From contig JAGMDF010000082.1 of the NCBI GenBank assembly GCA_023128825.1, positions 8,626-72,625 of the forward strand: a stretch of DNA of 64,000 bases, written 5' to 3'. This DNA comes from a candidate division WOR-3 bacterium (GTDB taxonomy: Bacteria > Hydrothermota > Tepidihabitantia > B3-TA06). The position numbers were made by a program, and so were the translations under genes. Below, piece by piece: positions 10,479 through 62,089 of this stretch. Position 1 is the stretch's first letter; every line of letters starts with the position of its first letter. Below the pieces are notes generated by a model, which was given only the letters and a program-made list of their open reading frames with translations, did not search any database and had not been told where the DNA came from.

Positions 10479-10566
10479 GGGGTCCCCGCGAGAATGCGAA
10501 GCAGGCTTGCGGGGTAAAAAAACGGGGTCCCCGCAAGGAGGCGAAGCATCCTTGTGGGGTAAAAAA
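10479..10566 (+). repeat. tandem pair of family-2 structured repeats (GGGGTCCCCGC - hairpin with CGAAGCA loop - GYGGGGTAAAAAA)
   Basis: Units at 10479..10522 and 10524..10566 are about 80% identical; inner stems differ but stay complementary (AAGGA/TCCTT in unit 2); abuts the 3' end of tRNA-Gln. Confidence 0.7.
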
Positions 10567-10637
10567 CTGGGGGACAGGGACTCGAACCCCGATTAACTGA
10601 TCCAGAGTCAGCCGTCCTGCCATTAGACGATCCCCCA
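10567..10637 (-). tRNA. tRNA-Gln (anticodon CTG)
   Basis: rc reads TGGGGGA...anticodon stem GCTGA/TCAGT with loop CTCTGGA...T-arm CGGGG-TTCGAGT-CCCTG...TCCCCCA-G. Confidence 0.85.
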
Positions 10638-10684: not shown

Positions 10685-11956
10685 GTGGCTTTTCTTGATC
10701 TATACAATTCCCAGCGGTTGACTTCCGATCATCACACGATAGAATTCCGTGTGAAGCAAGGTCTAAGGCTTGGAATCTATCTTCATGATCGCTACCGCGG
10801 CGGCGGAAACTTTACTGTTTCCAACTCCGAATCGTTGAACTTCATCAAAAGGTTAAAACTCGCCGAGCAAATCTCCTTGGCCGTCTCGGTCACCCCCATT
10901 CAAGATATAGATCGTGGCAACTATCGAGTCGTTGCAGAAGAACTCGGTATAAACCTGCTGCCTTTGCCTGGCTGGCGTAGCCTTGCAGAGAGCTTAACTT
11001 CAATACCCTTTTCCTTGAGTCGAATTCTGAAGACTGCCCGTAACCTGCTGGCAAAAAGCGACATCCTTTGGTTACGTCTGCCTTCCGGGGTTGCTTTTTT
11101 CTTCTGGTGGCTTGCCAAAAAGCAAAACAAGCCGGTAATCATGCACGTATCGGGCAACGTATTAATCGTAGCCCGGTCACAGAAGTATAAAGGCCTGCGT
11201 CGTCTCACGGCTCGATTGGCTTCCTTTACGCTACACCTGTTGACTCGGTGGATGAGTCGTTATGGAATAACTTTGGTAAGCGGAGGAGAGCTGGAGAAGC
11301 TTTTCTCGACCCCATTACACCCTGTATACCAGCTTGACGATATATTACTTTCTGAAAAGAAGCTACTACCCCCCAAGAGAACCAAGGGAGAGGCAAAGGA
11401 TCTACTCTTCGTCGGGCGATTTGACCACGGCAAGGGCATAGAATTGCTGATTCAAGCTATCGAGGATTTGCGAGTTGATTTCCCAGGGATCAGGTTAAGG
11501 ATGGCGGGTGACGGTCCGCTACTTGAGCCTATGCAAAGATTCGTTGCGGAGCGCAACCTTGAAAAGAACGTAAGGATTCTAGGGTTCGTCCCCGCAACCG
11601 GGCCGCTCGAGCGGCTTTACAAGGAGGCGGATATATTTGTATTACCCTCCGACAAAGGTGAGGGTTTCCCAAGGGTTATTCTTGAGGCATGGGGGTCAGG
11701 ATTGCCTGTTCTGGCAACTCGCTTGGGCGGAATCCCTTACAAGATACACCACGACAAAAACGGCCTGCTTGTCACACCGGGCTCCCGCAAGGAATTATTC
11801 AACGCCCTGCACAGGCTTATTCAGGACGGCAACCTGCGCTATCGTTTGGCTAAAGGTGGATACGAGACGATACGTTCCTTGACCTTTGAACATCAGGCTC
11901 GGCGCATCAGAGAGCTGTTGCATCGGTATTACCCCCACCTTGGGGTCCATCCCTGA
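10685..11956 (+). CDS. glycosyltransferase family 4 (GT-B, group 1)
   Basis: 'EGFPRVILEAWGSGLPVLATRLGGIPYKIHHDKNGLLV' is the GT1/GT4 EX7E-type motif; GTG start, true start uncertain. Confidence 0.7.
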   Translation: MAFLDLYNSQRLTSDHHTIEFRVKQGLRLGIYLHDRYRGGGNFTVSNSESLNFIKRLKLAEQISLAVSVTPIQDIDRGNYRVVAEELGINLLPLPGWRSLAESLTSIPFSLSRILKTARNLLAKSDILWLRLPSGVAFFFWWLAKKQNKPVIMHVSGNVLIVARSQKYKGLRRLTARLASFTLHLLTRWMSRYGITLVSGGELEKLFSTPLHPVYQLDDILLSEKKLLPPKRTKGEAKDLLFVGRFDHGKGIELLIQAIEDLRVDFPGIRLRMAGDGPLLEPMQRFVAERNLEKNVRILGFVPATGPLERLYKEADIFVLPSDKGEGFPRVILEAWGSGLPVLATRLGGIPYKIHHDKNGLLVTPGSRKELFNALHRLIQDGNLRYRLAKGGYETIRSLTFEHQARRIRELLHRYYPHLGVHP

Positions 11957-17458: not shown

Positions 17459-17493
17459 TGTAGGGGTACGGCATGCCGTGCCCCTAGATTTTT
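17459..17493 (+). terminator. palindromic terminator element, copy 1 (TGTAGGGGTACGGCATGCCGTGCCCCTA then GATTTTTAT)
   Basis: 26-nt near-perfect palindrome (one G.U) followed by a T-run; identical 28-mer recurs at 19967..19994. Confidence 0.7.
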
Positions 17494-19966: not shown

Positions 19967-20000
19967 TGTAGGGGTACGGCATGCCGTGCCCCTACTTTTA
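19967..20000 (+). terminator. palindromic terminator element, copy 2 (identical 28-mer TGTAGGGGTACGGCATGCCGTGCCCCTA then CTTTTA)
   Basis: Identical to 17459..17486. Confidence 0.7.
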
Positions 20001-20088: not shown

Positions 20089-21720
20089 ATGGTCAAGATC
20101 AAGCTGGGACGAAGTGCGGTGCGTGAAGTAAAAGAAGGCACCCCTATATCGAAGCTGATCCCTGCGGGTCAGCCCATCATCGCGGCCAAGCTGGAGGGTG
20201 AGCTGGTCGGACTCAACACCTCGCTTACCAAGGACGCGAAGATCGAGTTCGTTCTCGCCACCGATCCCGAAGGCCTGAAGATTCATCAGGAGAGTCTTAT
20301 CTTTGTCCTCACCATGGCCGCCAAACGCGCCTTTCCCGAAGCGAGGCTGGTGGTTGAACATTCAACCTCTAAGGGCTTCTACTGCACCCTAAGAATGGAG
20401 CGTATCATGGAGAAGCGCGACGTTGAGCTTCTTGAGGCTGAGATGCTCGGGCTTCTGGCCGACGATCTGCCCGTCACCATGCGGGAGGTGGATCGGAAGG
20501 AGGCAACCGCCATCTGTAAACGCAACAACAACACCTCAAAGCTGGCGTTATTGGAGTACGCGGATAAGGACGAGTACATTATCCACCGGTGCGGCGATTT
20601 CGCCGACTGGGCAAGAGGGCCGTTGGTTCCTTCAACCGGCTCCTTGTGCGCGTTTGAGCTTCTGCACTATCCACCCGGCTTTATTCTGCGCTACCCCACA
20701 CCTGAATCGTTCCCTGAGCTTCCCACCTTCGTGGAGCAGCCAAAACTCTTCCTTATCTTCCATCACTACGAGCGGTGGAGTGAAGCCTTGGGTATCTCCG
20801 ATATCGGCCACCTCAACCGTCTCATAAGGGAAGATAAAGGCCTTGAATTGGTCAACGTTGCCGAGGCTTTGCACGAGAAGGCCATCGCCCGAATTGCAGA
20901 CCGCATCGCCGCCACCACCATACTCCCCCGCATCGTGCTCATCGCCGGCCCCTCATCTGCCGGGAAAACAACCTTTTCCAAACGACTGGCGGTGCATCTG
21001 CGGGTTAACGGTCTGCGACCCCTGCCGTTGTCGGTGGACGACTACTTCTTCGACCGCTCCAGTACCCCGCTTGACGAGGAGGAAAAGCCCGATTTCGAGG
21101 GAATCGACGCCATTGATTTGGAGTTCTTCAACCAGCAGTTGGTGCTCCTTCTGGAAGGCAAAAGGGTGGATAGACCCCGCTTCGATTTCGAGAGAGGCAG
21201 GCGCTGTTTCGACGGCACCACCATGATCCTGAAGCCAAACGAGATACTTATCGTGGAGGGAATCCACGCGCTCAACCCGCGCCTGACTTCTGCCGTACCC
21301 AAACATCTCAAGTTCAAGATATACGTATCCGCGCTGACCCAGCTCAACTACCACGACCAGCGCATCGTTTCCACCTCTGACACCAGGATGCTGAGACGAA
21401 TGCTGCGCGACTACTCCTACCGCGCTCATACACCCACCAGAACCATGAAGCGGTGGGCTAAGGTGCGCAGGGGCGAGGAGCGCAACGTCTTCCCTTACCA
21501 GGAGTCGGCGGATGAGATGTTTAACTCGGCTCTTATCTATGAACTTGCAGTGATGCGCAACAGGGCAATGAAACTTCTGCGCACTGTCCGAAGCAAGGGC
21601 CTGCGCTCGGAGGCCGAACGCATGATCTCCCTCTTGGAACTGGTCACCCCTATGGACGACGGCGCGGTACCACCTGCATCCATCCTCCGCGAGTTCATCG
21701 GAGGAAGCGTCTTCCGGTAG
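20089..21720 (+). CDS. uridine kinase / phosphoribulokinase-family P-loop kinase with N-terminal TGS domain
   Basis: N-terminal 'MVKIKLGRSAVREVKEGTPISKL' TGS-like; 'LIAGPSSAGKTTFSKRLAVHL' Walker A with PRK/UDK-type downstream motifs. Confidence 0.6.
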   Translation: MVKIKLGRSAVREVKEGTPISKLIPAGQPIIAAKLEGELVGLNTSLTKDAKIEFVLATDPEGLKIHQESLIFVLTMAAKRAFPEARLVVEHSTSKGFYCTLRMERIMEKRDVELLEAEMLGLLADDLPVTMREVDRKEATAICKRNNNTSKLALLEYADKDEYIIHRCGDFADWARGPLVPSTGSLCAFELLHYPPGFILRYPTPESFPELPTFVEQPKLFLIFHHYERWSEALGISDIGHLNRLIREDKGLELVNVAEALHEKAIARIADRIAATTILPRIVLIAGPSSAGKTTFSKRLAVHLRVNGLRPLPLSVDDYFFDRSSTPLDEEEKPDFEGIDAIDLEFFNQQLVLLLEGKRVDRPRFDFERGRRCFDGTTMILKPNEILIVEGIHALNPRLTSAVPKHLKFKIYVSALTQLNYHDQRIVSTSDTRMLRRMLRDYSYRAHTPTRTMKRWAKVRRGEERNVFPYQESADEMFNSALIYELAVMRNRAMKLLRTVRSKGLRSEAERMISLLELVTPMDDGAVPPASILREFIGGSVFR

Positions 21721-21866
21721 GAAAACAAAAACAAATCCTCCCGCTCTAAGAGCAACTCGAAGACAAAGCACACCCATTAACTAATTGATCCCCCCTCCTG
21801 GGAAGCGAAAAATCGAAAACTAAGATATGCAGCTCAGCTGAAAGGGTGATCTTGCATTCTACTCCC

Positions 21867-21906
21867 CTGCGATCCTTTGCCCGTGGGGCAAGGAGCATTT
21901 ATTTCG
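21867..21906 (+). repeat. family-1 hairpin repeat, copy 1 (CTGCGATC-CTTTGCCC-GTG-GGGCAAGG-AGCATTTATTT), acts as terminator
   Basis: Conserved flanks CTGCGAYC / GGAGCAT with a variable complementary stem; T-rich tail; see the family-1 finding. Confidence 0.65.
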
Positions 21907-21929
21907 GAGCCATCGACTGAGGTGGATGT

Positions 21930-21957
21930 TTGACTTCCAATTGTTTCGCACTATAAT
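21930..21957 (+). promoter_or_regulatory. rpmH promoter (TTGACT-16-TATAAT)
   Basis: -35 at 21930-21935, -10 at 21952-21957. Confidence 0.6.
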
Positions 21958-21989
21958 CTTAATCGCAGTCTGGCGAAAGGAGAATGTTC

Positions 21990-22127
21990 ATGCCGAAAAG
22001 AACTTATCAACCAAGCAACCTCAAGCGTAAACGCACACATGGCTTTCGTAAACGTAACTCAACCCCTACAGGTAGAGCAATACTGAAGCGTCGCCGTGCC
22101 AAGGGGCGCAAACGCTTATCGGCATAG
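21990..22127 (+). CDS. rpmH: 50S ribosomal protein L34
   Basis: '[45 protein letters not shown]'; GGAG SD. Confidence 0.9.
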
Positions 22128-22129
22128 GG

Positions 22130-22477
22130 TTGAAGTTGAATACCGTTCGCTCTGAAAATCTGCCGCGCTCTGAGATTCTTCGTGGTGATAGAAATATAAG
22201 GGCCGTATTGGCCGCCCCGCCGGTATCCAGCGGAGCCCTCATGGCTCATTTCATTGAGGAACCACGCCGCAGGGTGGCGTTCTTTGTCCCGAGAACTATC
22301 GGAAAGGCGGTGGTTCGAAATCGTTGTAAGCGGCGCATGCGTGAAATATACAGACGAATGAAGAGAAAATTCCCGGAGGGCAAAATCATTTTCAGGTTAA
22401 AAAATGAGGTTAATCAAGTTGAGCTTGGTCGGTCCTTTTCTCTATGCGCCCAAAAACTGAGAGGCATGGGTGCGTAA
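22130..22477 (+). CDS. rnpA: ribonuclease P protein component
   Basis: '[18 protein letters not shown]' RnpA signature; TTG start directly after rpmH. Confidence 0.8.
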
Positions 22478-22676
22478 GTTATTTATCTGGATCATTCGTG
22501 CGTATCAGATCGTATTTGCAGGAGCACCGCGTAGTTGCCGCTTCGAGCCCACATGTTCGCAGTACGCGGTCGAAGCGATCGAGCGCTACGGTGTGTTGAG
22601 AGGAATTGTTAAAGCCGCCTGGAGGGTTTTGCGCTGCAATCCCTGGAATCCGGGTGGATACGATCCTGTGAGGTAA
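22470..22676 (+). CDS. yidD: membrane protein insertion efficiency factor YidD
   Basis: '[37 protein letters not shown]' YidD signature; GTG start overlaps the rnpA end. Confidence 0.85.
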
Positions 22677-22678
22677 AT

Positions 22679-24403
22679 GTGAGCGACGGACAACAGCAAA
22701 GAGGAGGTATCTGGTCAACGATCCTGGTGGTGGTGCTGGTCGCGGGAATGCTGCTTATATTTAACTTTTTAAGGAAAGACTCCGGTGGCGGATGTATGGG
22801 TGAGCCGGCAGCTGAAAAATCAACGTCTGCTGCGGTTGGGATGCCCACCAAAGAACCTACCACTGGCAGGGGATCGGAGGAGCGAGCACAGGAGGGACCT
22901 GAAGCGGATTCAATAACCCTTGAGAACGAATATCTCAAGCTCTCATTCCTGGCCTGGCCGTATCATCCCGGCTTTAGAATCACGATGGCGGAACTCAAAG
23001 ATTTCACCCGGAAGAAAGAAGCCACAAGCACTGAACGAATACCGGTCAATCTGCTTGAAGAGTCGGGTTTTGAGATTCTCGGCAAGATGGACTCAAGCCT
23101 TTCGGCCCTCAAACTCGCCGATCGCAGCGACACCTCGGTGACCTTCGTATGGGAAGATACACTGGGTGAGGAGAGATACATTGCAGTGGTTTTGACTGGT
23201 TACGAGCTGCACATTCTCCACTCCGATTCTCTTGAGCCGCTCCTTTTCCACTGCGCAGCAGGGCTTGTGCCTACCGAGCCGGGCGATAAAACTGAACTTA
23301 CCCTTTATCAGCTTTACTATCGTGACGGGGAGAAGAAGGTTCAATACCTTAACGCCAAGCGGATCGGCCAACTAAAGAAAGGCAACCGCGAGATCGAGCC
23401 CGGCCCTTACGAATGGGTGGCGCTTCGTTCCAAGTACTTTACCGCAATCATATTGCCATCAGAACCTGTGGTTGGAAAGATAATCCCCAGCGCAACCAAG
23501 AAGCAACGTATCGGTCTCTCATTCGACATTGAAGGAGGCCGCGAGTTCAGGCTTTACTTCGGTCCCCAGGATTACGAGATCCTGGCAAAGATGGGGCACA
23601 AACTGAGCCGGATTGTTGAACTGGGGGGGTCTGCATTTCGCTGGCTGGGTGTCATCATGCTCAAGATATTCCAGTTCTTTTACCGCATCATCGGCAACTA
23701 TGGAATAGCAATAATTGTATTCTCGATACTTATCAAGCTCGTCTTCCTGCCGCTTTCCCAGGTTCAGCAGCGTTCGATGCAGAAGATGCAGATGCTGCAG
23801 CCCAAGCTCAAGGAACTGCAGGAGCGCTTCAAGGACGATAAGCAACGCCTGAACGAGGAAACCATGAAGCTGTACAAACTTCATGGGGCATCACCGTTCA
23901 AGGGCTGCCTGCCCATGCTTATCCAGCTGCCTGTATTCTTCGGGCTTTACGCGGTGCTGCGCAACGCCATTAGCTTGCGCGGCGCACCGTTTGTCAAGCT
24001 GTTCACGGTAACTATTGTCAAGAACCCCGAAAAGGCCATCAACATCTTTAACTTCATTAGAATCCCCGCCGGCGAATTAACCTGGCTGGCGGATCTGTCC
24101 CAGCACGACCCATTCTACATACTCCCCATTCTCATGGGCGTAGCCTCTGTATTCCAGAGTCTGATGACCAACCCCAATCCACAGCAACGCCTGATGACCT
24201 TCATGATGCCGATTTTTATTACTGTAATCTTCCTTAACTTCCCTTCAGGATTACAGCTATACTGGTTTCTTTTCAATCTCCTCTCCATACTGGAGTTTGC
24301 GATTTTCAGGAGAGGAATGAAAGCTGGAGGAGATCAATGGCAGAGCAAGAGGCCCAAAGAGATAGCTTCGGCGAGGAGCTTGCCGAAATCCTCTCGCAGA
24401 TAG
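22679..24403 (+). CDS. yidC: membrane protein insertase YidC
   Basis: 'QMLQPKLKELQERFKDDKQRLNEETMKLYKLHGASPFKGCLPMLIQLPVFFGLY' 60-kDa inner-membrane protein core. Confidence 0.9.
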   Translation: MSDGQQQRGGIWSTILVVVLVAGMLLIFNFLRKDSGGGCMGEPAAEKSTSAAVGMPTKEPTTGRGSEERAQEGPEADSITLENEYLKLSFLAWPYHPGFRITMAELKDFTRKKEATSTERIPVNLLEESGFEILGKMDSSLSALKLADRSDTSVTFVWEDTLGEERYIAVVLTGYELHILHSDSLEPLLFHCAAGLVPTEPGDKTELTLYQLYYRDGEKKVQYLNAKRIGQLKKGNREIEPGPYEWVALRSKYFTAIILPSEPVVGKIIPSATKKQRIGLSFDIEGGREFRLYFGPQDYEILAKMGHKLSRIVELGGSAFRWLGVIMLKIFQFFYRIIGNYGIAIIVFSILIKLVFLPLSQVQQRSMQKMQMLQPKLKELQERFKDDKQRLNEETMKLYKLHGASPFKGCLPMLIQLPVFFGLYAVLRNAISLRGAPFVKLFTVTIVKNPEKAINIFNFIRIPAGELTWLADLSQHDPFYILPILMGVASVFQSLMTNPNPQQRLMTFMMPIFITVIFLNFPSGLQLYWFLFNLLSILEFAIFRRGMKAGGDQWQSKRPKEIASARSLPKSSRR

Positions 24404-42840: not shown

Positions 42841-42922
42841 GCCGGGGTGGTGAAATTGGCAGACACGTACGTTTGAGGGGCGTATGGGTAACTCCGTGCG
42901 GGTTCAAGTCCCGCCCCCGGCA
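42841..42922 (+). tRNA. tRNA-Leu (anticodon GAG), type II with long variable arm
   Basis: Acceptor GCCGGGG/CCCCGGC, anticodon stem TACGT/GCGTA with loop TTGAGGG, 12-nt variable arm, T-arm GCGGG-TTCAAGT-CCCGC, discriminator A. Confidence 0.85.
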
Positions 42923-42971
42923 TTAAATCCTCCTTTCGTCCTGCGGACAAAAGATCGGAAAAAGATTTATT

Positions 42972-43000
42972 GAAGAGCTGGTAACGTCAGCTCTTTCGTT
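42972..43000 (+). terminator. rho-independent terminator after tRNA-Leu (GAAGAGCTG...CAGCTCTT then TCGTTTTT)
   Basis: 9-bp stem, 7-nt loop, T-run. Confidence 0.6.
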
Positions 43001-43003
43001 TTT

Positions 43004-43037
43004 CTGCGATCTTTCCTGCGTGGCAGGAAAGGAGCAT
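43004..43037 (+). repeat. family-1 hairpin repeat, copy 2 (CTGCGATC-CTTTCCTGC-GTG-GCAGGAAAG-GAGCAT)
   Basis: Perfect 9-bp stem with invariant flanks. Confidence 0.7.
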
Positions 43038-43041
43038 AAAT

Positions 43042-43413
43042 TTAGTAACCGAGGCGGCGCAGCTCGGCATCGGACAGCCCGAAGAAGTGGCCTATCTCGT
43101 GAAGAACCACACGGCGCAGGAGCGTCTTGATCTCGGAAGGTGCACTGGCGTAGCGCTCAATCAGAGATTTGTAGATAACGATCCGATCCGGCCAAAGACC
43201 GTAACCCGTTGCCCCTCTCCGACGAAGCGGAACGCCGTGGTAGAAACCCAGAACCCGACCACCCATAAACGAGGGCGGATCCGCGGCATCAGGGTAATCC
43301 TTGACCGCGATAACGATGTTGCGCTCGTCTAAAGCCTGCTTGAATTTTGCCGGCAGTCCCTCAATCGTCTCCCTCACGATCCGCTCGAACTCCTCGCGAC
43401 CAAGCTTGCTCAT
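43042..43413 (-). CDS. zincin-like metallopeptidase family protein (DUF1025-type, HEIGH motif)
   Basis: 'PDRIVIYKSLIERYASAPSEIKTLLRRVVLHEIGHFFGLSDAELRRLGY'; ATG 43413 overlaps the Xer stop (ATGA). Confidence 0.65.
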   Translation of the reverse strand: MSKLGREEFERIVRETIEGLPAKFKQALDERNIVIAVKDYPDAADPPSFMGGRVLGFYHGVPLRRRGATGYGLWPDRIVIYKSLIERYASAPSEIKTLLRRVVLHEIGHFFGLSDAELRRLGY

Positions 43414-44378
43414 GCGCGCGGGTGGAAGGTTTTGTAGACCTCGCGCAGGTAGGAACGGTCTACGTGGGTGTATATCTCGGTTGTGGAGATGTCCGCATGC
43501 CCCAGCATCTCCTGCACCGCACGCAGGTCGGCTCCGCCTTCCAGAAGATGCGTGGCAAAGGAGTGCCGGAAGGTGTGAGGGGTAACGTGGCCCTTGATGC
43601 CGGCGGCCTGGACGTAGGAATGAATGATCCTCCATGCGCCCATGCGAGAGAGCGGCCCCCCGCGAACGTTCAGGAACAAGACGTTCTTTGCCTGACCGCT
43701 TGTCCTAAGGAGGGTGGAGCGCCCCGGGACACCATCTCGGTAACGTCTCACCGCGTTTATCGCCGGTTCTCCCAGAGGAACTATTCGCTCCTTATCCCCT
43801 TTACCGATAATTCTCAAAAATTCCTCTTCCAGATATAGATCGCCCATCTTCAAGTTGATCAATTCCGATATCCTGAGGCCAGCTCCATATAGCACTTCAA
43901 GCATAGCATGATCTCGTAGGGCTAAAGCAATAGCACGTCTTATCTCTGTATCAGAACGCGGGGATTTCACCTTATCCATAGATGAGTGGGCTGCTTCCAG
44001 AACCCTCTCGACCTCCTCCACGGAAAGCACCTCGGGCAGCTTGCGAGGCAGCTTCGGTCCGGAGATATTCTCGCCAGGATCACCGGAGAGCCTGCCTGTA
44101 TCGTTGAGATAGCGCAAAAACATACGGATGGCGGAGAGTTTTCGTGCCCCCGAGCGGGGGGCAAGGCCCGCCTCGGCAAGTCTCGCAAGATAACCACGCA
44201 GTAGTCTGGAGGTCACATCCAATATCTCTTTGCCTCTCTCGCTGAGATAGGATACGAACTGATCGAGGTCACGCCCGTAAGCCTCTACCGAGTTTGCAGA
44301 AAGCCCCCGTTCTGCAACCAGGTAGTTCAAAAACTCCTCAAGCAGAGGGTCCTTTTGCTTCTCCTCAGCGTATATCAA
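43410..44378 (-). CDS. site-specific tyrosine recombinase, XerC/XerD family
   Basis: N-terminal SAM-like 'LEEFLNYLVAERGLSANSVEAYGRDLDQF'; catalytic 'HTFRHSFATHLLEGGADLRAVQEMLGHADISTTEIYTHV'. Confidence 0.9.
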   Translation of the reverse strand: MIYAEEKQKDPLLEEFLNYLVAERGLSANSVEAYGRDLDQFVSYLSERGKEILDVTSRLLRGYLARLAEAGLAPRSGARKLSAIRMFLRYLNDTGRLSGDPGENISGPKLPRKLPEVLSVEEVERVLEAAHSSMDKVKSPRSDTEIRRAIALALRDHAMLEVLYGAGLRISELINLKMGDLYLEEEFLRIIGKGDKERIVPLGEPAINAVRRYRDGVPGRSTLLRTSGQAKNVLFLNVRGGPLSRMGAWRIIHSYVQAAGIKGHVTPHTFRHSFATHLLEGGADLRAVQEMLGHADISTTEIYTHVDRSYLREVYKTFHPRA

Positions 44379-56600: not shown

Positions 56601-57349
56601 TCGTTGGCCGGAATCCAGTCCCCGCCGCAGGCGTAGCTATCCTGCTCGGAGATGATGTCTCCGTTTCCAAAGGGACCAGGGCTGACCTCAGGCATCTGTA
56701 TTGCACGGCGATACTTGTTGATCGTGGTATCCGTAAACGGCCAGAGCACCTGGTAGTCAAGAGGGGTAGTTCCGGGAGTGGCAAAGAGCCTTCCGCCTTC
56801 ACCGTCATACCCGTAGCCTTGAGGGATGGTCATATCACTGAAGTAAAGCCCGAGGTTGCTGATGTCGCGCATGCCGCCTGCGATTTTCATCTCCGGAGCG
56901 GCCATAGCTCCAATGTCCGAGTTAAAGGCACCCTTGGAGACGTTATAGACCATCTCGTCTCCAACCGGGTAGTGGCTGCCGACCCACAGACCCCACGCAT
57001 AGGTGTAGAACTGCTCTGAGCCTTTGGGATACTCGGCGTTCCTGCCTCTCGTGTTAGGATAAAGCCTGCTAGACTCTATGGGGAATTCCCCTCTGTATTC
57101 GTGTTCGTCTGCCGGGTGGCGGGCGAATGTGCCGCCCTGAAGGGTATTGCTGACCAGGAAGTCTGAGATGTTTCCTGCGTCTACCCACCATATCATCCAC
57201 CAGGAGGCCGCCTCGTTTGTCGCCACGGTCAAGAGACGGTTTTGATTTTGGGGTGCAAGCTGAACGTCGCTATCCATTCTGGCAAGAACGGGTAAAGCCA
57301 GAAACACGAGGCTCGCTAAAACAAGGATTGTTTTTCTTTTCATCGTCAT
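53666..57349 (-). CDS. very large secreted protein (1227 aa) with T9SS C-terminal sorting domain
   Basis: Signal peptide; C-terminus 'VVPNPYYV...HVIFQRLPLKCSIRIFNSAGLLIRTIEHDG...EWDLLTEAGMDCTSGLYIWQVEAETSDGKKKTKVGKFAIIR' is a canonical Por_Secre_tail. Confidence 0.75.
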   Translation of the reverse strand: MTMKRKTILVLASLVFLALPVLARMDSDVQLAPQNQNRLLTVATNEAASWWMIWWVDAGNISDFLVSNTLQGGTFARHPADEHEYRGEFPIESSRLYPNTRGRNAEYPKGSEQFYTYAWGLWVGSHYPVGDEMVYNVSKGAFNSDIGAMAAPEMKIAGGMRDISNLGLYFSDMTIPQGYGYDGEGGRLFATPGTTPLDYQVLWPFTDTTINKYRRAIQMPEVSPGPFGNGDIISEQDSYACGGDWIPANDATCIWILSTGAYDLRGQGLRIEQRTYAWNYEYNNSYIFINYKIRNMNDFPLDSVYFSFFMDNDIGEGGTSAGDDGFWDDLIGFDQELNMGYTYDANGSEEGWVTPAGYIGAVFLDTPLDIGLTGFETWPNGYEIDNLGQDSLKYAYMAHTEFWTYDKPNDVRMLMNCGPYPHLKPDEEVELTIAVIVAYSFDELKEKAKSAKIQFENGYFGYAPPPNPSLSVIPGDSVVYLTWGSESEHYIDPMSGQPTFEGYRIYKSLSGLSETWQLLGDYDLKDSKNPDTAVVEHTSGPSKASIEFLEVYYNEFTRKEPAEYGFEPNTYTLTFQQDKKDTSYKYYIVYDVATQNILTYNPDALEESGYCVLDKLNGTPKAFPAAVKAKGKVTFTPGPGDTLIPKGTIVATDADNPVFGYVEFETTQNGTIDPPGTPVDVNIEARVAGTVGNVTAGQITTIVKPVLPGVTVTNADPITGGVDGPHYYPYESGDIIFIDGGQYCISDADSGATGDILEPIHGEVFTINTYTETQLGGQVGVRHYYVDEDVRNGQIYYYSVTSYSKPQPTEGVESLEGGKTGKTYWAVSRSNPMGWQDAMVGPVIRVAGDGSALVRDSLISPDEITGHEYEVGFRAVTRIDTIIEGSDVTIDTLDIIKYAYFKDVDADSLVLDSFLTHAGELSGPIIDGVLVQVASVPIDTLDVEELIDTLYTGWLERPSKTDMYWNMDWTNAIRGRPVPYTIDYLVTVVDSAQDGKDRWGPVVVNRYDNNEPVESFLWNKDGDPNIDRLDITGNTSVSIYWEEIKPGKEVFKLSFVDTATTRRPIVDTVTNDTIGWDTTRYVIPPEPGDKFLIKTLKATSEEDRFRYTTFAARLDEDDTTQTLDDVRVVPNPYYVRAPWDRSQYDRHVIFQRLPLKCSIRIFNSAGLLIRTIEHDGEGLYGAAGSEEWDLLTEAGMDCTSGLYIWQVEAETSDGKKKTKVGKFAIIR

Positions 57350-60300: not shown

Positions 60301-60514
60301 GGTTAGAGATCACGTAGGTTCCATCCATGCCGGTTGCAGCACCAGTGACGGACTCACCATTCTGTCGCACGATGACGTTTACAGAGGGCAGTGGATCTCC
60401 TGTTCCGGCGTCTCTTACCCGCCCGGTGATCTTCCCCATGATACCGGCCATTAAAAGACCTGGAATGAGAAGTAACACCATGGCGAGAAAGACGCCCCTT
60501 ACTTTTACTCTCAC
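57362..60514 (-). CDS. TonB-dependent outer-membrane receptor, SusC/RagA-like (N-terminal CarboxypepD_reg domain + plug + 22-strand barrel)
   Basis: 'GKITGRVRDAGTGDPLPSVNVIV...GTYVISNLRAGEYTLEFSMIGY' CarbopepD_reg; plug 'YVVDGINANDP'; C-terminal 'RELRFGIRVSF'. Confidence 0.75.
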   Translation of the reverse strand: MRVKVRGVFLAMVLLLIPGLLMAGIMGKITGRVRDAGTGDPLPSVNVIVRQNGESVTGAATGMDGTYVISNLRAGEYTLEFSMIGYQVVVVSGVKVTADQVTKQDARLKPGSIDMPVQIITATRPLLTTEPHPIERGEIIRMPVDNYQDVVRLVAGATETASGYSSGLHIQGGRTNEVVYVVDGINANDPVTGQSGVYIDNTAIQEITINTGTFNAEYGDAMSAVVNIVTREGSSQRFEGTAEYETDAHLRLSKDPIKYPNKDMWHNKGSLSFGGPLGLPRSSFFISGNILEHENRLPFNDQHRKNGTLKLAWRPTEGGAKFTLSGNYSNTWRHGYSHAYSKGIWLQNGPMVNQDNYQLNLKVNQRIDKIAYTVNVGTFNTHSKTSYMDGAHYNDFRMVGRMLMDWVTWAYGRTWWEHDTTISEEGDTIIDSTLQRIYNADSMSFYIPESTFAYVDNNTQDSIYFNILERYSAITEDPDSAVWFFHNEYVKKNGYLIDGDSVFRWVGCKEQLESLNWRWYEVNEWRPTVETRIEGTDTIIDTVGVHYHLFDFDLYKHYYDLWQNWKDTTVDNPYEDSLESSGNLYYVRYNTDPLFRRFRYYFFPYWAERNTTKYIADASFDWNPNEVHWFKAGMSGNYHFLDYKSIQFVNENPYNDTYHKEPIIAAAYVQDKIKYEDLELNAGVRFDFFHPASDYFVDPENIDSGKVVAKPKFQFSPRLSISFAVSEKSMMYASYGHFFQPVNLQDLYENLEADITVGVPLLGNPNLPPLKTIFYQAGYKYAISNDMAFELKGYYKDQENLLATRSVNTIYKGKLSTYTVYVIEDFAKVTGFDVGLVRRAARFLSWNITYSFMDAKGTGSSGREFYYRYRGTALEPPKHEYPLEFDVTHSLKANLNFYLAPDFSVKALRLTNLNVQFNYASGQPYWGTDSRGNIIPMGTRRMPGTKTLDAKLEKWFPLGERLRLGAYFDVRNIFDWRNVVNVYSNTGLPDDNGGRPVYEEANYRNYASNGFADEYENWQADVADWEHYYAQSPAMFGAPRELRFGIRVSF

Positions 60515-60850
60515 GTTAAACCTCCTAGCTCTAGCTGGATGGGTTTTTCAACATAACTCTATGTGAACTGGGGTCGGAATACTCCGATTACAAAGAATTG
60601 ACGCACCTCCTTTTCTTTCGTGGGAATTCACACTTTGACATTCACTCATAATAACCGTCCGTTTTTGCAGGCCGCCCTAGAAAGCCCAACATTAACTCAT
60701 CTGCTCAAGAGGGTTACACGGGGAGACAATCCAACTCCTTCGTGTATACCTTCGTATTTGAGTATAGGTTTCTTTCCTGACTTGTCAAGTGGTAGGAAAT
60801 CTGTGCGCCAGGAGATCATTGCCAGGGGGTGGGCCTACATTTAACAAACC

Positions 60851-60883
60851 GTGTGGAACGGGCTCTCTAGCCCGTTCTTTTAT
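60851..60883 (+). repeat. repeat A, copy 1: GTGTGGAACGGGCTCTCTAGCCCGTTCTTTTAT (9-bp stem, CTCT loop, U-run; terminator-like)
   Basis: Identical 33-mer at 61441..61473; followed by conserved ATTATGCACAGGCTGGAG. Confidence 0.7.
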
Positions 60884-60960
60884 ATTATGCACAGGCTGGA
60901 GCACCCGACGGGGGTACACTGGTATGGAGTGCGACAACGCGGTTGTCGCACTCCAAAGTT

Positions 60961-60997
60961 ATATGCTCCTTTTTACCTGGCGGTAAAAAGATCGCAG
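60961..60997 (-). repeat. family-1 hairpin repeat, copy 4 (inverted orientation: ATATGCTC-CTTTTTACC-TGGC-GGTAAAAAG-ATCGCAG)
   Basis: rc gives CTGCGAT...GAGCAT flanks; perfect 9-bp stem. Confidence 0.7.
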
Positions 60998-61012
60998 TAT
61001 AGAACTGTCCTA

Positions 61013-61052
61013 GGGGTCCCCGCGGCGTTACGAAGTAACGGCGTGGGGTAAA
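61013..61052 (+). repeat. family-2 structured repeat, copy 3 (GGGGTCCCCGCG-GCGTTAC-GAAG-GTAACGGC-GTGGGGTAAAG)
   Basis: Same conserved ends and GAAG loop as the 10479..10566 units, with a different complementary inner stem. Confidence 0.65.
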
Positions 61053-61359
61053 GTTACACCTCCCCCTTGACGGGGGAGAGTAGGGAGGGGGATTGTCATT
61101 GCGAGCGAACGAAGTGAGCGAAGCAATCTCGTAAAGATGACAAAGGCGTCTCAGTCATTATGAGGAGCGAGTGTTCGTGACGAGCGACATGACACCGAAG
61201 GACGACGCTTGCGGAGTAATCTCATTCTGCAAGGCGGTGCTATGAGATCGCCACACTTCCCCGCCTCTTACGAGGCGGACGGTCGGTCGCGATGACATTT
61301 AATCTTCCCCTCCCCTGGTGGGAGGGGTCGGAGACGAAGTCGACGGGGGAAGGGGAAAC

Positions 61360-61395
61360 ATATGCTCCTTTTCGCCTGTGGCGAAAAGATCGCAG
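61360..61395 (-). repeat. family-1 hairpin repeat, copy 5 (inverted orientation: ATATGCTC-CTTTTCGCC-TGT-GGCGAAAAG-ATCGCAG)
   Basis: Stem differs from copy 4 by compensatory TA>CG changes in both arms. Confidence 0.7.
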
Positions 61396-61440
61396 AGAAA
61401 GAATCGGTACATTCCCTTCGGGAATAGCTAGCGGCCCCGC

Positions 61441-61473
61441 GTGTGGAACGGGCTCTCTAGCCCGTTCTTTTAT
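61441..61473 (+). repeat. repeat A, copy 2 (identical 33-mer, followed by hairpin CACAGGC-TGGAGA-GCCTGTG)
   Basis: See 60851..60883. Confidence 0.7.
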
Positions 61474-61600
61474 GATTATCCACAGGCTGGAGAGCCTGTG
61501 CTACATTAAAGATATCCAATCTGTGTAAGTATTTTGAGGTTGAGTGCATAGATTTACTGGAATTCTTCCGTAGACAAAAGTGGGTTTTCAGGCATCAGGG

Positions 61601-62089
61601 TTAGAAATCTATTATCCTCCGTGCCCCTGCATATCTATGTTCGTAGTAGGGGTTGCCGACCCAGCGGACTACGATCACCCCATAGGTCGAAGATGCGTGC
61701 GCCATCTTGCCGTCCCAAAGATAGATGCCCACGTGGTTCACCTTGCCATGTCTGCCTTTACGAAAGAATACCAGATCGCCCATCTTCAGGGTGCACCTCG
61801 AAACCGACTTGCCCATTTTGAACTGTTTGCTTGCCGAGTGCGGCAGCTTTACCCCGAATCCCTTGAAAACCGTCATTGTAAATCCCGAGCAATCCGTACC
61901 TTTTGGGGTCGAGCCGCCGTAGACGTAGGGCGTTCCCTTGAAGCGGCGTATCTCCTCCACCAGGGCATCGCGCTGGGGTGTGCGCGTGGTCGCCCTCGGC
62001 ACACATCCTGCTACCGTAACACACCCCATCAAAATCAACACTACCCCCCCGATCCCAAGCACGCCCCGGATAAGGACACGTCTATTCAT
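61601..62089 (-). CDS. NlpC/P60 (C40) family peptidoglycan endopeptidase lipoprotein
   Basis: 'GGSTPKGTDCSGFTMTVFKGFGVKLPHSASKQ...KMGDLVFF...HVGIYL' Cys-His-His catalytic arrangement; lipobox 'LMGC'. Confidence 0.8.
   Translation of the reverse strand: MNRRVLIRGVLGIGGVVLILMGCVTVAGCVPRATTRTPQRDALVEEIRRFKGTPYVYGGSTPKGTDCSGFTMTVFKGFGVKLPHSASKQFKMGKSVSRCTLKMGDLVFFRKGRHGKVNHVGIYLWDGKMAHASSTYGVIVVRWVGNPYYEHRYAGARRIIDF

Follow-up and report, generated by a model that had tools for sequence, protein, structure and literature searches.

We analysed a 64,000-nucleotide stretch of DNA (hereafter the window) from a candidate division WOR-3 bacterium (assembly GCA_023128825.1, contig JAGMDF010000082.1, positions 8,626 to 72,625), in which a 1086-nt spacer (60515–61600) lies between the start of a TonB-dependent-receptor-type gene (60514, minus strand) and the stop codon of an NlpC/P60 gene (61601, minus strand). 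This spacer contains a nest of hairpins which, with a probability of about three in four, is a small accessory islet that has lost its genes and is decaying, located at a hotspot marked by a two-hairpin module (repeat A). It would be made of hairpins similar to repetitive extragenic palindromes (REPs) and bacterial interspersed mosaic elements (BIMEs), most of them originating as 3′-end structures of genes that were deleted. The interval consists of two unrelated parts, the promoter and leader of the receptor operon (60515–60798) and the hotspot with its insert (60850–61508). A preliminary description, made from the letters of the window, had read the hairpins either as a large ornate non-coding RNA (ncRNA) or as a cluster of elements resembling REPs or miniature inverted-repeat transposable elements (MITEs).

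The insert boundaries, the state with a single A and the gene-bearing versions with identical junctions can be read directly from related loci, which we fetched through NlpC/P60 homologues and a metagenome scan for repeat A. We read the state of each locus in gene orientation, that is, along the minus strand of the window. Three relatives (loci L011, L012 and L013; NlpC/P60 88% identical at the amino acid level) have a 489-nt spacer with a single A copy and no nest; it aligns to positions 13–161 and 700–1086 of the window spacer, and the two flanks join at one A. In the window and in two other assemblies (L001 and L002), the first A (…GCCCGTTCCACACG) is followed by a 590-nt segment, the last 52 nt of which are a truncated second copy, A′. 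The full 69-nt module (61440–61508, type 1) is the boundary of the insert on the NlpC side, and A′ (60850–60901), a direct repeat of 61440–61492, is the boundary on the TonB side. Beyond A′ comes the sequence common to the single-copy site (GTTTGTTAAATG…), and the insert body, the nest proper (60902–61439), is absent from L011, L012 and L013. L008 and L010 (94%) show both junction sequences as in the window and the same two A′ polymorphisms, here enclosing a 2.9-kb insert with five open reading frames (ORFs): two XRE helix-turn-helix (HTH) genes (117 aa), a gene for a 111-aa protein, one for a 187-aa protein that matches SLT weakly, and one for a 202-aa membrane protein. Three stretches returned by the scan for A (L021, L023 and L025) belong to the two contigs of L008 and L010. 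The L008 islet and the nest share only the nest ends and a 54-nt poly-C piece. The L024 version, of about 1.1 kb, holds two ORFs, a single HTH gene and the 111-aa one.

Other relatives show that the content of the site turns over. In L007 (98%), about 200 nt that include A′, a perfect palindrome and a pair of hairpins of the dispersed families F1 and F2 (described below) are swapped for other hairpin modules. In L014 to L017 (83%), an HTH gene adjoins NlpC/P60 and there is no A module, and L018, L020 and L006 each have a different gene as downstream or upstream neighbour; L020 has copies of F2 and of a third family, F3. We found no conservation of the nest as an orthologous unit with compensatory changes, as it is absent from L011 to L013, filled with genes in L008 and L024, and partly swapped in L007. 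The spacer itself is 99.9% identical in L001 and L002, the NlpC/P60 protein is residue-for-residue identical in the metagenome-assembled genome (MAG) GCA_030640845.1 and in an ENA assembly, and L007, from a separate sample, has most of the nest at 96% identity. Because L001 and L002 carry the nest at 99.9% and L007 carries most of it at 96%, we exclude an assembly artefact. Several short-read contigs end at this locus: L003 and L009 in or just past repeat A, L004 at 202 nt upstream of the receptor start, and L014 to L017 inside a duplicated HTH gene. Evidently, the repeats of this spacer break short-read assemblies.

Comparison with the gene-bearing versions showed what the nest retains of them. 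Its A-proximal 78 nt (a small UUC hairpin and an F1 element) reach the stop codon of the HTH gene in L008. Likewise, the poly-C/poly-G hairpin segment at 61303–61358 corresponds to the 54 nt directly after the stop codon of the 111-aa gene (stop at L008 10023; 94% match to L008 10028–10081), and this poly-C segment also follows that stop in L024 and L032. At 61358|61360 the window abuts what in L008 would be the 111-aa stop joined to the HTH stop. Because two post-stop pieces abut at this point, a 1.3-kb [111-aa / HTH / HTH] block is missing exactly from stop to stop. The second gene block of L008 is replaced in the window by three F3 elements, a C-run hairpin, an F2 and an F1.

Similar gene units were found at a second locus (L022 and L032), where HTH/114-aa units are flanked on one side by a 470-aa gene, itself downstream of YjeF, and on the other by an aldehyde dehydrogenase (Aldedh) gene. 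The modules between these units are A, a C-run hairpin CCTCCCCCTTGACGGGGGAG, a TGGAGTGCGACAA…CACTCCA palindrome, the poly-C segment, F2 and a GTAG-type REP. The array of L032 (5355–7466) reads A-[HTH, 114 aa]-A-[HTH, 114 aa]-A and repeats about every 1036 nt; the leading A matches the window A in type, and the internal copies match A′. The array unit is an XRE-HTH gene with a divergent 111/114-aa gene, repeated in tandem (L032 5355–7466; L022 886–3883). DUF5343 and Hypoth_Ymh genes also lie between the A copies of L022. The 111-aa family falls into 11 clusters, all of them unnamed; a first impression from its motifs, that it might be a GIY-YIG nuclease, found no support in Pfam, PHROGs or PADLOC and was dropped. 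No recombinase or integrase was detected among the ORFs of the L008 islet (Pfam, PADLOC and PHROGs) or among those of the L022 islet and its neighbours (Pfam), the only matches in these scans being XRE HTH, a weak SLT, DUF5343, Hypoth_Ymh and YjeF.

Repeat A had been described as occurring twice, and we confirmed an identical 34-mer at 60850–60883 and 61440–61473, followed by an 18-nt tail in which the two copies differ at one base and by a 1-nt indel; the chance expectation for such 34-mer matches is zero. The module consists of a hairpin GGAACGGGCTCTCTAGCCCGTTC with TTTTAT and then a second hairpin CACAGGCTGGAGAGCCTGTG. The A hairpin folds at −16.5 kcal/mol (z-score against shuffled sequences −4.7) and an alternative long hairpin at −34.6 kcal/mol (z −6.3), and A can also fold as a single imperfect 22-nt inverted repeat around an AT-rich spacer. 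Both copies satisfy the definition of an intrinsic terminator on the plus strand only (10-bp stem, TTTTAT), the strand that in L008 is the direction of the HTH genes running toward NlpC/P60. A′ carries the type-2 polymorphisms (GCATAAT-ATAAAAG) common to L008 and to the internal A copies of L032. The 69-nt module is 100% identical in L011 to L013, L024 and L026 and 98.5% identical in L022 and L032; this 98–100% conservation extends across contexts where adjacent genes are only about 76% identical, and in each context the break falls at the right edge of A, …CCACA(CG). We considered and rejected three identities for A. It is not a dispersed repeat, with two copies in the window, six JGI metagenome stretches that all fall at two loci, and no viral contig. 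Reading of its sequence showed neither RYYYAAC nor GTTRRRY on either strand, as an integron attC site would have (its GTTCCAC and GTGGAAC break the R/Y pattern of attC), and no likeness to the dif consensus.

The hairpin families of the nest are dispersed, their stems covary, and F1 stands after stop codons. F1 (consensus aATGCTCCTTT-stem-loop-stem-AAAGATCGCAGa) occurs about nine times in the window, and further copies lie in L004, L006, L008, L014, L018 and L022. Comparison of 17 copies showed pairing in 94% of cells and 26 double-sided changes at four stem positions; none of 500 shuffles reached the observed values, and no slid register came close. At four independent loci, a stop codon or tRNA 3′ end on the same strand precedes F1 by 2–6 nt, and F1 is never that near an opposite-strand stop. 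F2 (GGGGTCCCCGCG-…-CGTGGGG) is always 36 nt long, with five copies in the window; across 10 copies 91% of cells are paired, with 22 double-sided changes. As a G·U pair is conserved at the fifth stem-base position in 9 of 10 F2 copies, selection appears to act on one strand, that is, on RNA. F3 has fixed flanks (GTCATTGCGAG-hairpin-GAAGCAATCTC) around a variable GC hairpin and is also found in L018, L020 and L029. All three families thus share one architecture, with fixed flanks and stem base and a covarying or variable tip. Counts of about nine F1 and five F2 copies per 64 kb, with further copies in seven related loci, fit the description of REPs as short palindromes found many times between genes. 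None of the three is followed by a T-run on either strand, and all lack the 5′ GTAG of REPs, F1 having (A)ATGCTCC, F2 GGGGTCCCC and F3 GTCATTGCGAG in its place. Our literature searches on the F3 core sequence and on repeats in WOR-3 / Stahlbacteria returned nothing relevant. A phage-borne origin of F1 was rejected, given eight pattern matches in 2.9 million viral contigs, only two or three of them hairpin-like. We also rejected a reading of its reverse strand (AAAGGAGCAT) as a Shine-Dalgarno sequence; the two antisense copies inspected (14586 and 21869) lie at least 110 nt from the next downstream gene start.

Some copies elsewhere in the window deserve a separate mention. A convergent F1 pair lies at 42925–43043, one member 3 nt past a plus-strand tRNA (42841–42922) and its partner about 6 nt past the stop codon of a minus-strand gene (43042–43635); each is sense to its own gene, and together they resemble a pair of 3′-end structures. 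Two tandem F2 elements 45 nt apart (10479–10563) abut the 3′ end of a minus-strand tRNA (10567–10637), and their upper stems differ by compensatory changes. A smaller nest (52336–52569), in a 418-nt spacer between an OEP gene and a 360-aa gene, consists of F2 (minus strand), F1 (plus strand), a C-run segment and F1 (minus strand, 4 nt after the stop) and is kept in L004, L006 and L023. Separately, GTAG-type REP palindromes (GTAGGGGTACGGCATGCCGTGCCCCTAC and GTAGGGGCCGACC…GGTCGGCCC) occur in the window (17459–17491 and 19967–19999), in L008 (11358–11392) and in L018 (8790–8810 and 9100–9160). In L018, a 97-aa Y1_Tnp fragment, similar to REP-associated tyrosine transposases (RAYTs) and IS200, lies directly downstream of NlpC/P60 and is flanked by GGGCCGACC-type GTAG REPs (GTAGGGGCCGACC…GGTCGGCCC), which suggests that a REP-RAYT system exists in the lineage.

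Taken hairpin by hairpin, the nest agrees closely with the preliminary inventory, nearly all positions of which were right to within 1–2 bases. The perfect stem reported as 13 bp at 60926–60954 is real and one pair longer: a 14-bp palindrome, TGGAGTGCGACAAC-GCG-GTTGTCGCACTCCA, at 60925–60955 (z −6.7). Its arms recur in L032 between gene units and in L008, where a 77-nt piece bearing F2 splits them (11394–11500), bounded by an 8-nt direct repeat (GTTGTCGC); this piece is either an F2 insertion with target duplication or, alternatively, the window has undergone a repeat-mediated deletion. The two family-1 elements (ATGCTCCTTT-[variable stem]-AAAGATCGCAG) were confirmed as F1 hairpins at 60961–60999 (z −2.6) and 61360–61398 (z −3.2); they are in direct orientation to each other, both on the plus strand, and the counterpart of the second directly follows the stop codon of an XRE-HTH gene in L008 and L022. 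The family-2 element is likewise real (F2, 61013–61048, plus strand, z −4.2), and its supposed GAAG tetraloop folds as a C-GAA-G triloop. We also confirmed the CTCCCCC/GGGGGAG hairpin as the C-run hairpin CCTCCCCC-TTGAC-GGGGGAGAG (61058–61080, z −3.3), a module that comes after A in L022 and L032. The small hairpin announced as a textbook UUCG tetraloop at 61411–61426 is in fact 15 nt long (61411–61425, ATTCCC-UUC-GGGAAT), with a 6-bp stem, a UUC triloop and no cUUCGg; it is kept at the same junction in L007, L008 and L024. For the CCCCTCCCC/GGGAGGGG hairpin at about 61307–61327, the 8-bp stem is there, but it does not fold better than shuffles (z −1.55).

Three GTCATTGCGAG-type F3 elements (61094–61296) had not been listed before. 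Element a (GTCATTGCGAG...GAAGCAATCTC, 61094–61131, plus strand) folds no better than shuffles, and neither does element b, a long variant (61154–61224, plus strand, z +0.7). Element c (61244–61296, minus strand, z −2.9) has the opposite orientation to the other two, forms pairs with element a when the region is folded as a whole, and is the only one that outfolds shuffles; it holds the CCGCCTC-TTAC-GAGGCGG hairpin reported at 61262–61279, which is real. Overall, the structures significantly better than shuffles are the palindrome at 60925, the F1 pair, F2, the C-run hairpin, the CCGCCTC hairpin and A. Folded as a whole, the nest (60850–61505, 656 nt) reaches z-scores of −9.2 (plus strand) and −7.1 (minus strand), and such strong folding on both strands is what is expected of a string of DNA palindromes. 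We agree that the spacer holds no credible coding sequence (CDS); its ORFs are at most 78 aa, the largest being 65–78 aa, and six internal ORFs had no Pfam match even at E ≤ 1.

In the scenario that we favour, the decayed islet would have arisen as follows. The A module downstream of NlpC/P60 would act as a recombination hotspot, and in this strain the 590-nt segment that ends in the truncated A′ lies beside it. In related versions, these two junctions enclose [XRE-HTH / 111-aa] units with or without two further ORFs. The genes would then have been deleted flush with their stop codons, leaving the 3′-end hairpins (F1, the UUC hairpin, the poly-C segment and A), and the remnant also contains dispersed palindromic modules, namely F1, F2, the three F3 elements, the C-run hairpin and the 14-bp palindrome. 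Gain and loss of the segment would occur by recombination between A copies, which may be homologous or may depend on a site-specific enzyme acting in trans; the A/A′ duplication and the solo-A state are due either to such an enzyme, encoded elsewhere, or to homologous recombination between repeats of 52–69 nt. Three features favour A as a recognised site: a right edge that is precise and does not shift, exceptionally strong conservation, and the layout of an inverted repeat. The hairpin families themselves probably act on RNA as 3′-end, terminator or stabiliser structures, because F2 has a conserved G·U pair, the copies show a sense bias, and A is followed by a T-run on the plus strand. In this strain the nest would have no dedicated function beyond, perhaps, blocking read-through between the flanking units.

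Several observations weigh against this reconstruction. No islet version contains a recombinase or transposase, so the A/A′ duplication has no evident maker. The HTH gene of L014 to L017 stands beside NlpC/P60 without A, so A is not strictly required at the junction. The solo-A state is either ancestral or a secondary deletion, islet-bearing relatives lying on both sides of L011 by NlpC/P60 identity, and it may well be a secondary deletion and not a naive site. F1 and F2 also occur antisense to neighbouring genes, and the role proposed for the hairpins on RNA is deduced from their pattern and placement. Finally, copy numbers for whole genomes are extrapolated from 64 kb and about 30 short loci.

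Among the alternatives, we regard it as unlikely that the 590-nt segment is an intact non-autonomous mobile element, site-specific for A (attL = A, attR = A′) and served by a recombinase elsewhere, in the manner of integrase-less IMEX or CIME elements or of integron cassettes. The direct repeats that flank the insert, the exact single-copy site with identical outer flanks in L011 to L013, the constancy of the right edge of A as a breakpoint and the conservation of A far above that of adjacent genes would all fit such an element, as would the folding of A, which resembles a recombinase core site, and the two sequence types of outer and internal A copies seen both in L032 and in the window. However, an active element is disfavoured because there is no recombinase (none of these versions contains or adjoins an integrase, Xer-like or Y1 gene), because A has neither attC core sites nor likeness to dif, and because nothing points to repeated integration: the window and L008 share one truncated A′, which places the duplication once, in an ancestor. 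Moreover, repeats of 52–69 nt are long enough for RecA-dependent deletion. A broader proposal is equally doubtful, namely that WOR-3 / Stahlbacteria have an undescribed cassette system without an integrase, with A as its recombination site, in which [XRE-HTH / 111-aa] units and other small cargo are arrayed between A copies and exchanged between at least two chromosomal loci and F1 to F3 form a distinct class with a conserved base and a hypervariable tip, making 3′ ends independent of U-tracts.

It is still less probable that the nest is kept as an insulator, its terminator or processing hairpins stopping read-through from NlpC/P60 into the receptor operon and antisense transcription into NlpC/P60. 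Both A copies are canonical hairpin and T-run terminators on the plus strand, F1 and F2 are biased toward the sense orientation after gene ends, and the region folds strongly on both strands, but relatives manage with one A in a 489-nt spacer, the content changes even between strains of 98% identity, and no hairpin has a U-run after it on the minus strand, along which both flanking genes are read. The remaining idea, a single large structured RNA (similar to GOLLD, ROOL, HEARO or OLE, or of a new class), is largely refuted by the comparative data, and we give it almost no weight. What had suggested it was the high hairpin density, the very negative z-scores and the lack of a CDS. Against it, a search of the whole window with Rfam 15 (4227 models, including GOLLD, ROOL, HEARO and OLE) at gathering scores returned only three tRNAs, and a permissive search of 60400–61750 (E ≤ 10, permissive filters) returned only microRNA (miRNA) and small RNA hairpin matches of at most 26 bits, compared with gathering scores of 38–100; the best of these were animal miRNA models fitting long hairpins (26 bits, gathering about 70). 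Furthermore, the only promoter-like site is that of the receptor, close relatives lack the region or carry it rearranged or filled with genes, it folds about equally on both strands, and its parts are independent dispersed repeats. The covariation that had been suspected is real, but between dispersed copies of short repeats and not between orthologous copies of one RNA. Of the second preliminary suggestion, a cluster of REP- or MITE-like elements with processing or terminator sites, the REP-like part is close to what we observe, given the dispersal of F1 to F3 and the position of F1 after gene ends, whereas the MITE part does not: in place of terminal inverted repeats and a short target site duplication we found 52-nt direct repeats, and the ends are not mutually inverted.

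The decayed islet that we propose has counterparts among known systems. BIMEs of E. coli and the REP and REPIN elements of Pseudomonas are likewise intergenic mosaics of several short imperfect palindromes, present at high copy in both orientations, often just after gene ends and with strain-variable content, and they too have been proposed to stabilise mRNA 3′ ends or to act as terminators. F1 to F3 differ from them in lacking the 5′ GTAG of RAYT-associated REPs and in conserving the stem base and flanks while the tip covaries, whereas REP families conserve the whole stem; in addition, no RAYT was seen in the window, and the Y1_Tnp fragment of L018 is flanked by the other, GTAG-type REP. Islets at attachment-site (att) hotspots and their remnants share with this locus the direct repeats of the target around variable cargo, the single-copy site in relatives, the different cargo at the same junctions and the gene-less decayed versions; here, however, the target is a two-hairpin intergenic module and not a tRNA or tmRNA gene, no version has an integrase, and the insert measures only 0.6–2.9 kb. 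The L032 array recalls integron arrays and clusters of attC sites lacking integron integrases (CALINs), in that a structured imperfect palindrome of about 69 nt stands between short gene units and the first site is unlike the internal ones, but there are no R″/R′ core sites and no IntI, the units are divergent gene pairs with their own promoter, and only two or three were seen. With large ornate ncRNAs (GOLLD, ROOL, HEARO, OLE) the nest has in common a long ORF-free stretch with many stable hairpins; unlike them, it matches no covariance model, is not conserved as a whole across relatives and folds alike on both strands.

Palindromic-repeat mosaics and decayed islets are both familiar, and we add an instance from a phylum that has been little studied; we do not describe a new class of RNA. 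For annotation, this removes one candidate "ornate ncRNA" and indicates that hairpin-dense long spacers in MAGs of candidate phyla can be decayed islets overrun by palindromic repeats. Mildly surprising to specialists may be the common architecture of F1 to F3 and the A-bounded HTH/111-aa arrays without a recombinase. The design of F1 to F3 and the fact that A is better conserved than the genes it separates would offer handles on transcript 3′-end formation and on small-scale gene mobility in WOR-3, given transcriptomes or the genome of the cultured relative.

The left part of the spacer belongs to the receptor operon. About one-fifth of the interval originally flagged (its left 200 nt, 60600–60798) is receptor-operon promoter and leader, which the preliminary description had missed, as it had the fact that the two A copies delimit a strain-specific insert. 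A sigma-70-type promoter, TTGACA-16-TATACT (60761–60788, minus strand, 11 of 12 consensus matches), is the only promoter-like site in 60400–61750 and is kept in L006. It is followed by a 5′ leader of about 240 nt (60515–60760, minus strand), identified by its sequence conservation: identity is 97–98.5% in L004, L007, L008 and L011 to L013 and 84% in L006, which is another species (receptor 82% identical at the amino acid level). Among the compared loci, 60515–60798 is the only part of the spacer that is conserved wherever the receptor occurs, and the leader belongs to this neighbouring gene and not to the nest. The leader has an internal AAGGAGG, and its context is typical of riboswitches. We observed no excess structure relative to shuffles (z 0.02), only two covarying pairs among six mostly close sequences, and no Rfam match, so that a riboswitch is not supported at the present depth.

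The genes around the spacer encode NlpC/P60 (61601–62089, minus strand), a thioredoxin-like protein, the receptor (1050 aa, CarboxypepD_reg and Plug domains) and a Baseplate_J-like protein. A second long gap in the window (21720–22679) was considered as another nest and rejected, as it holds rpmH and small ORFs that read as rnpA and yidD. The protein with the Baseplate_J-like domain (1227 aa, 53666–57349, minus strand) is encoded in one operon with the TonB-receptor-like gene, which it directly follows; the pairing is unusual and is kept in L007, L011 and L008.

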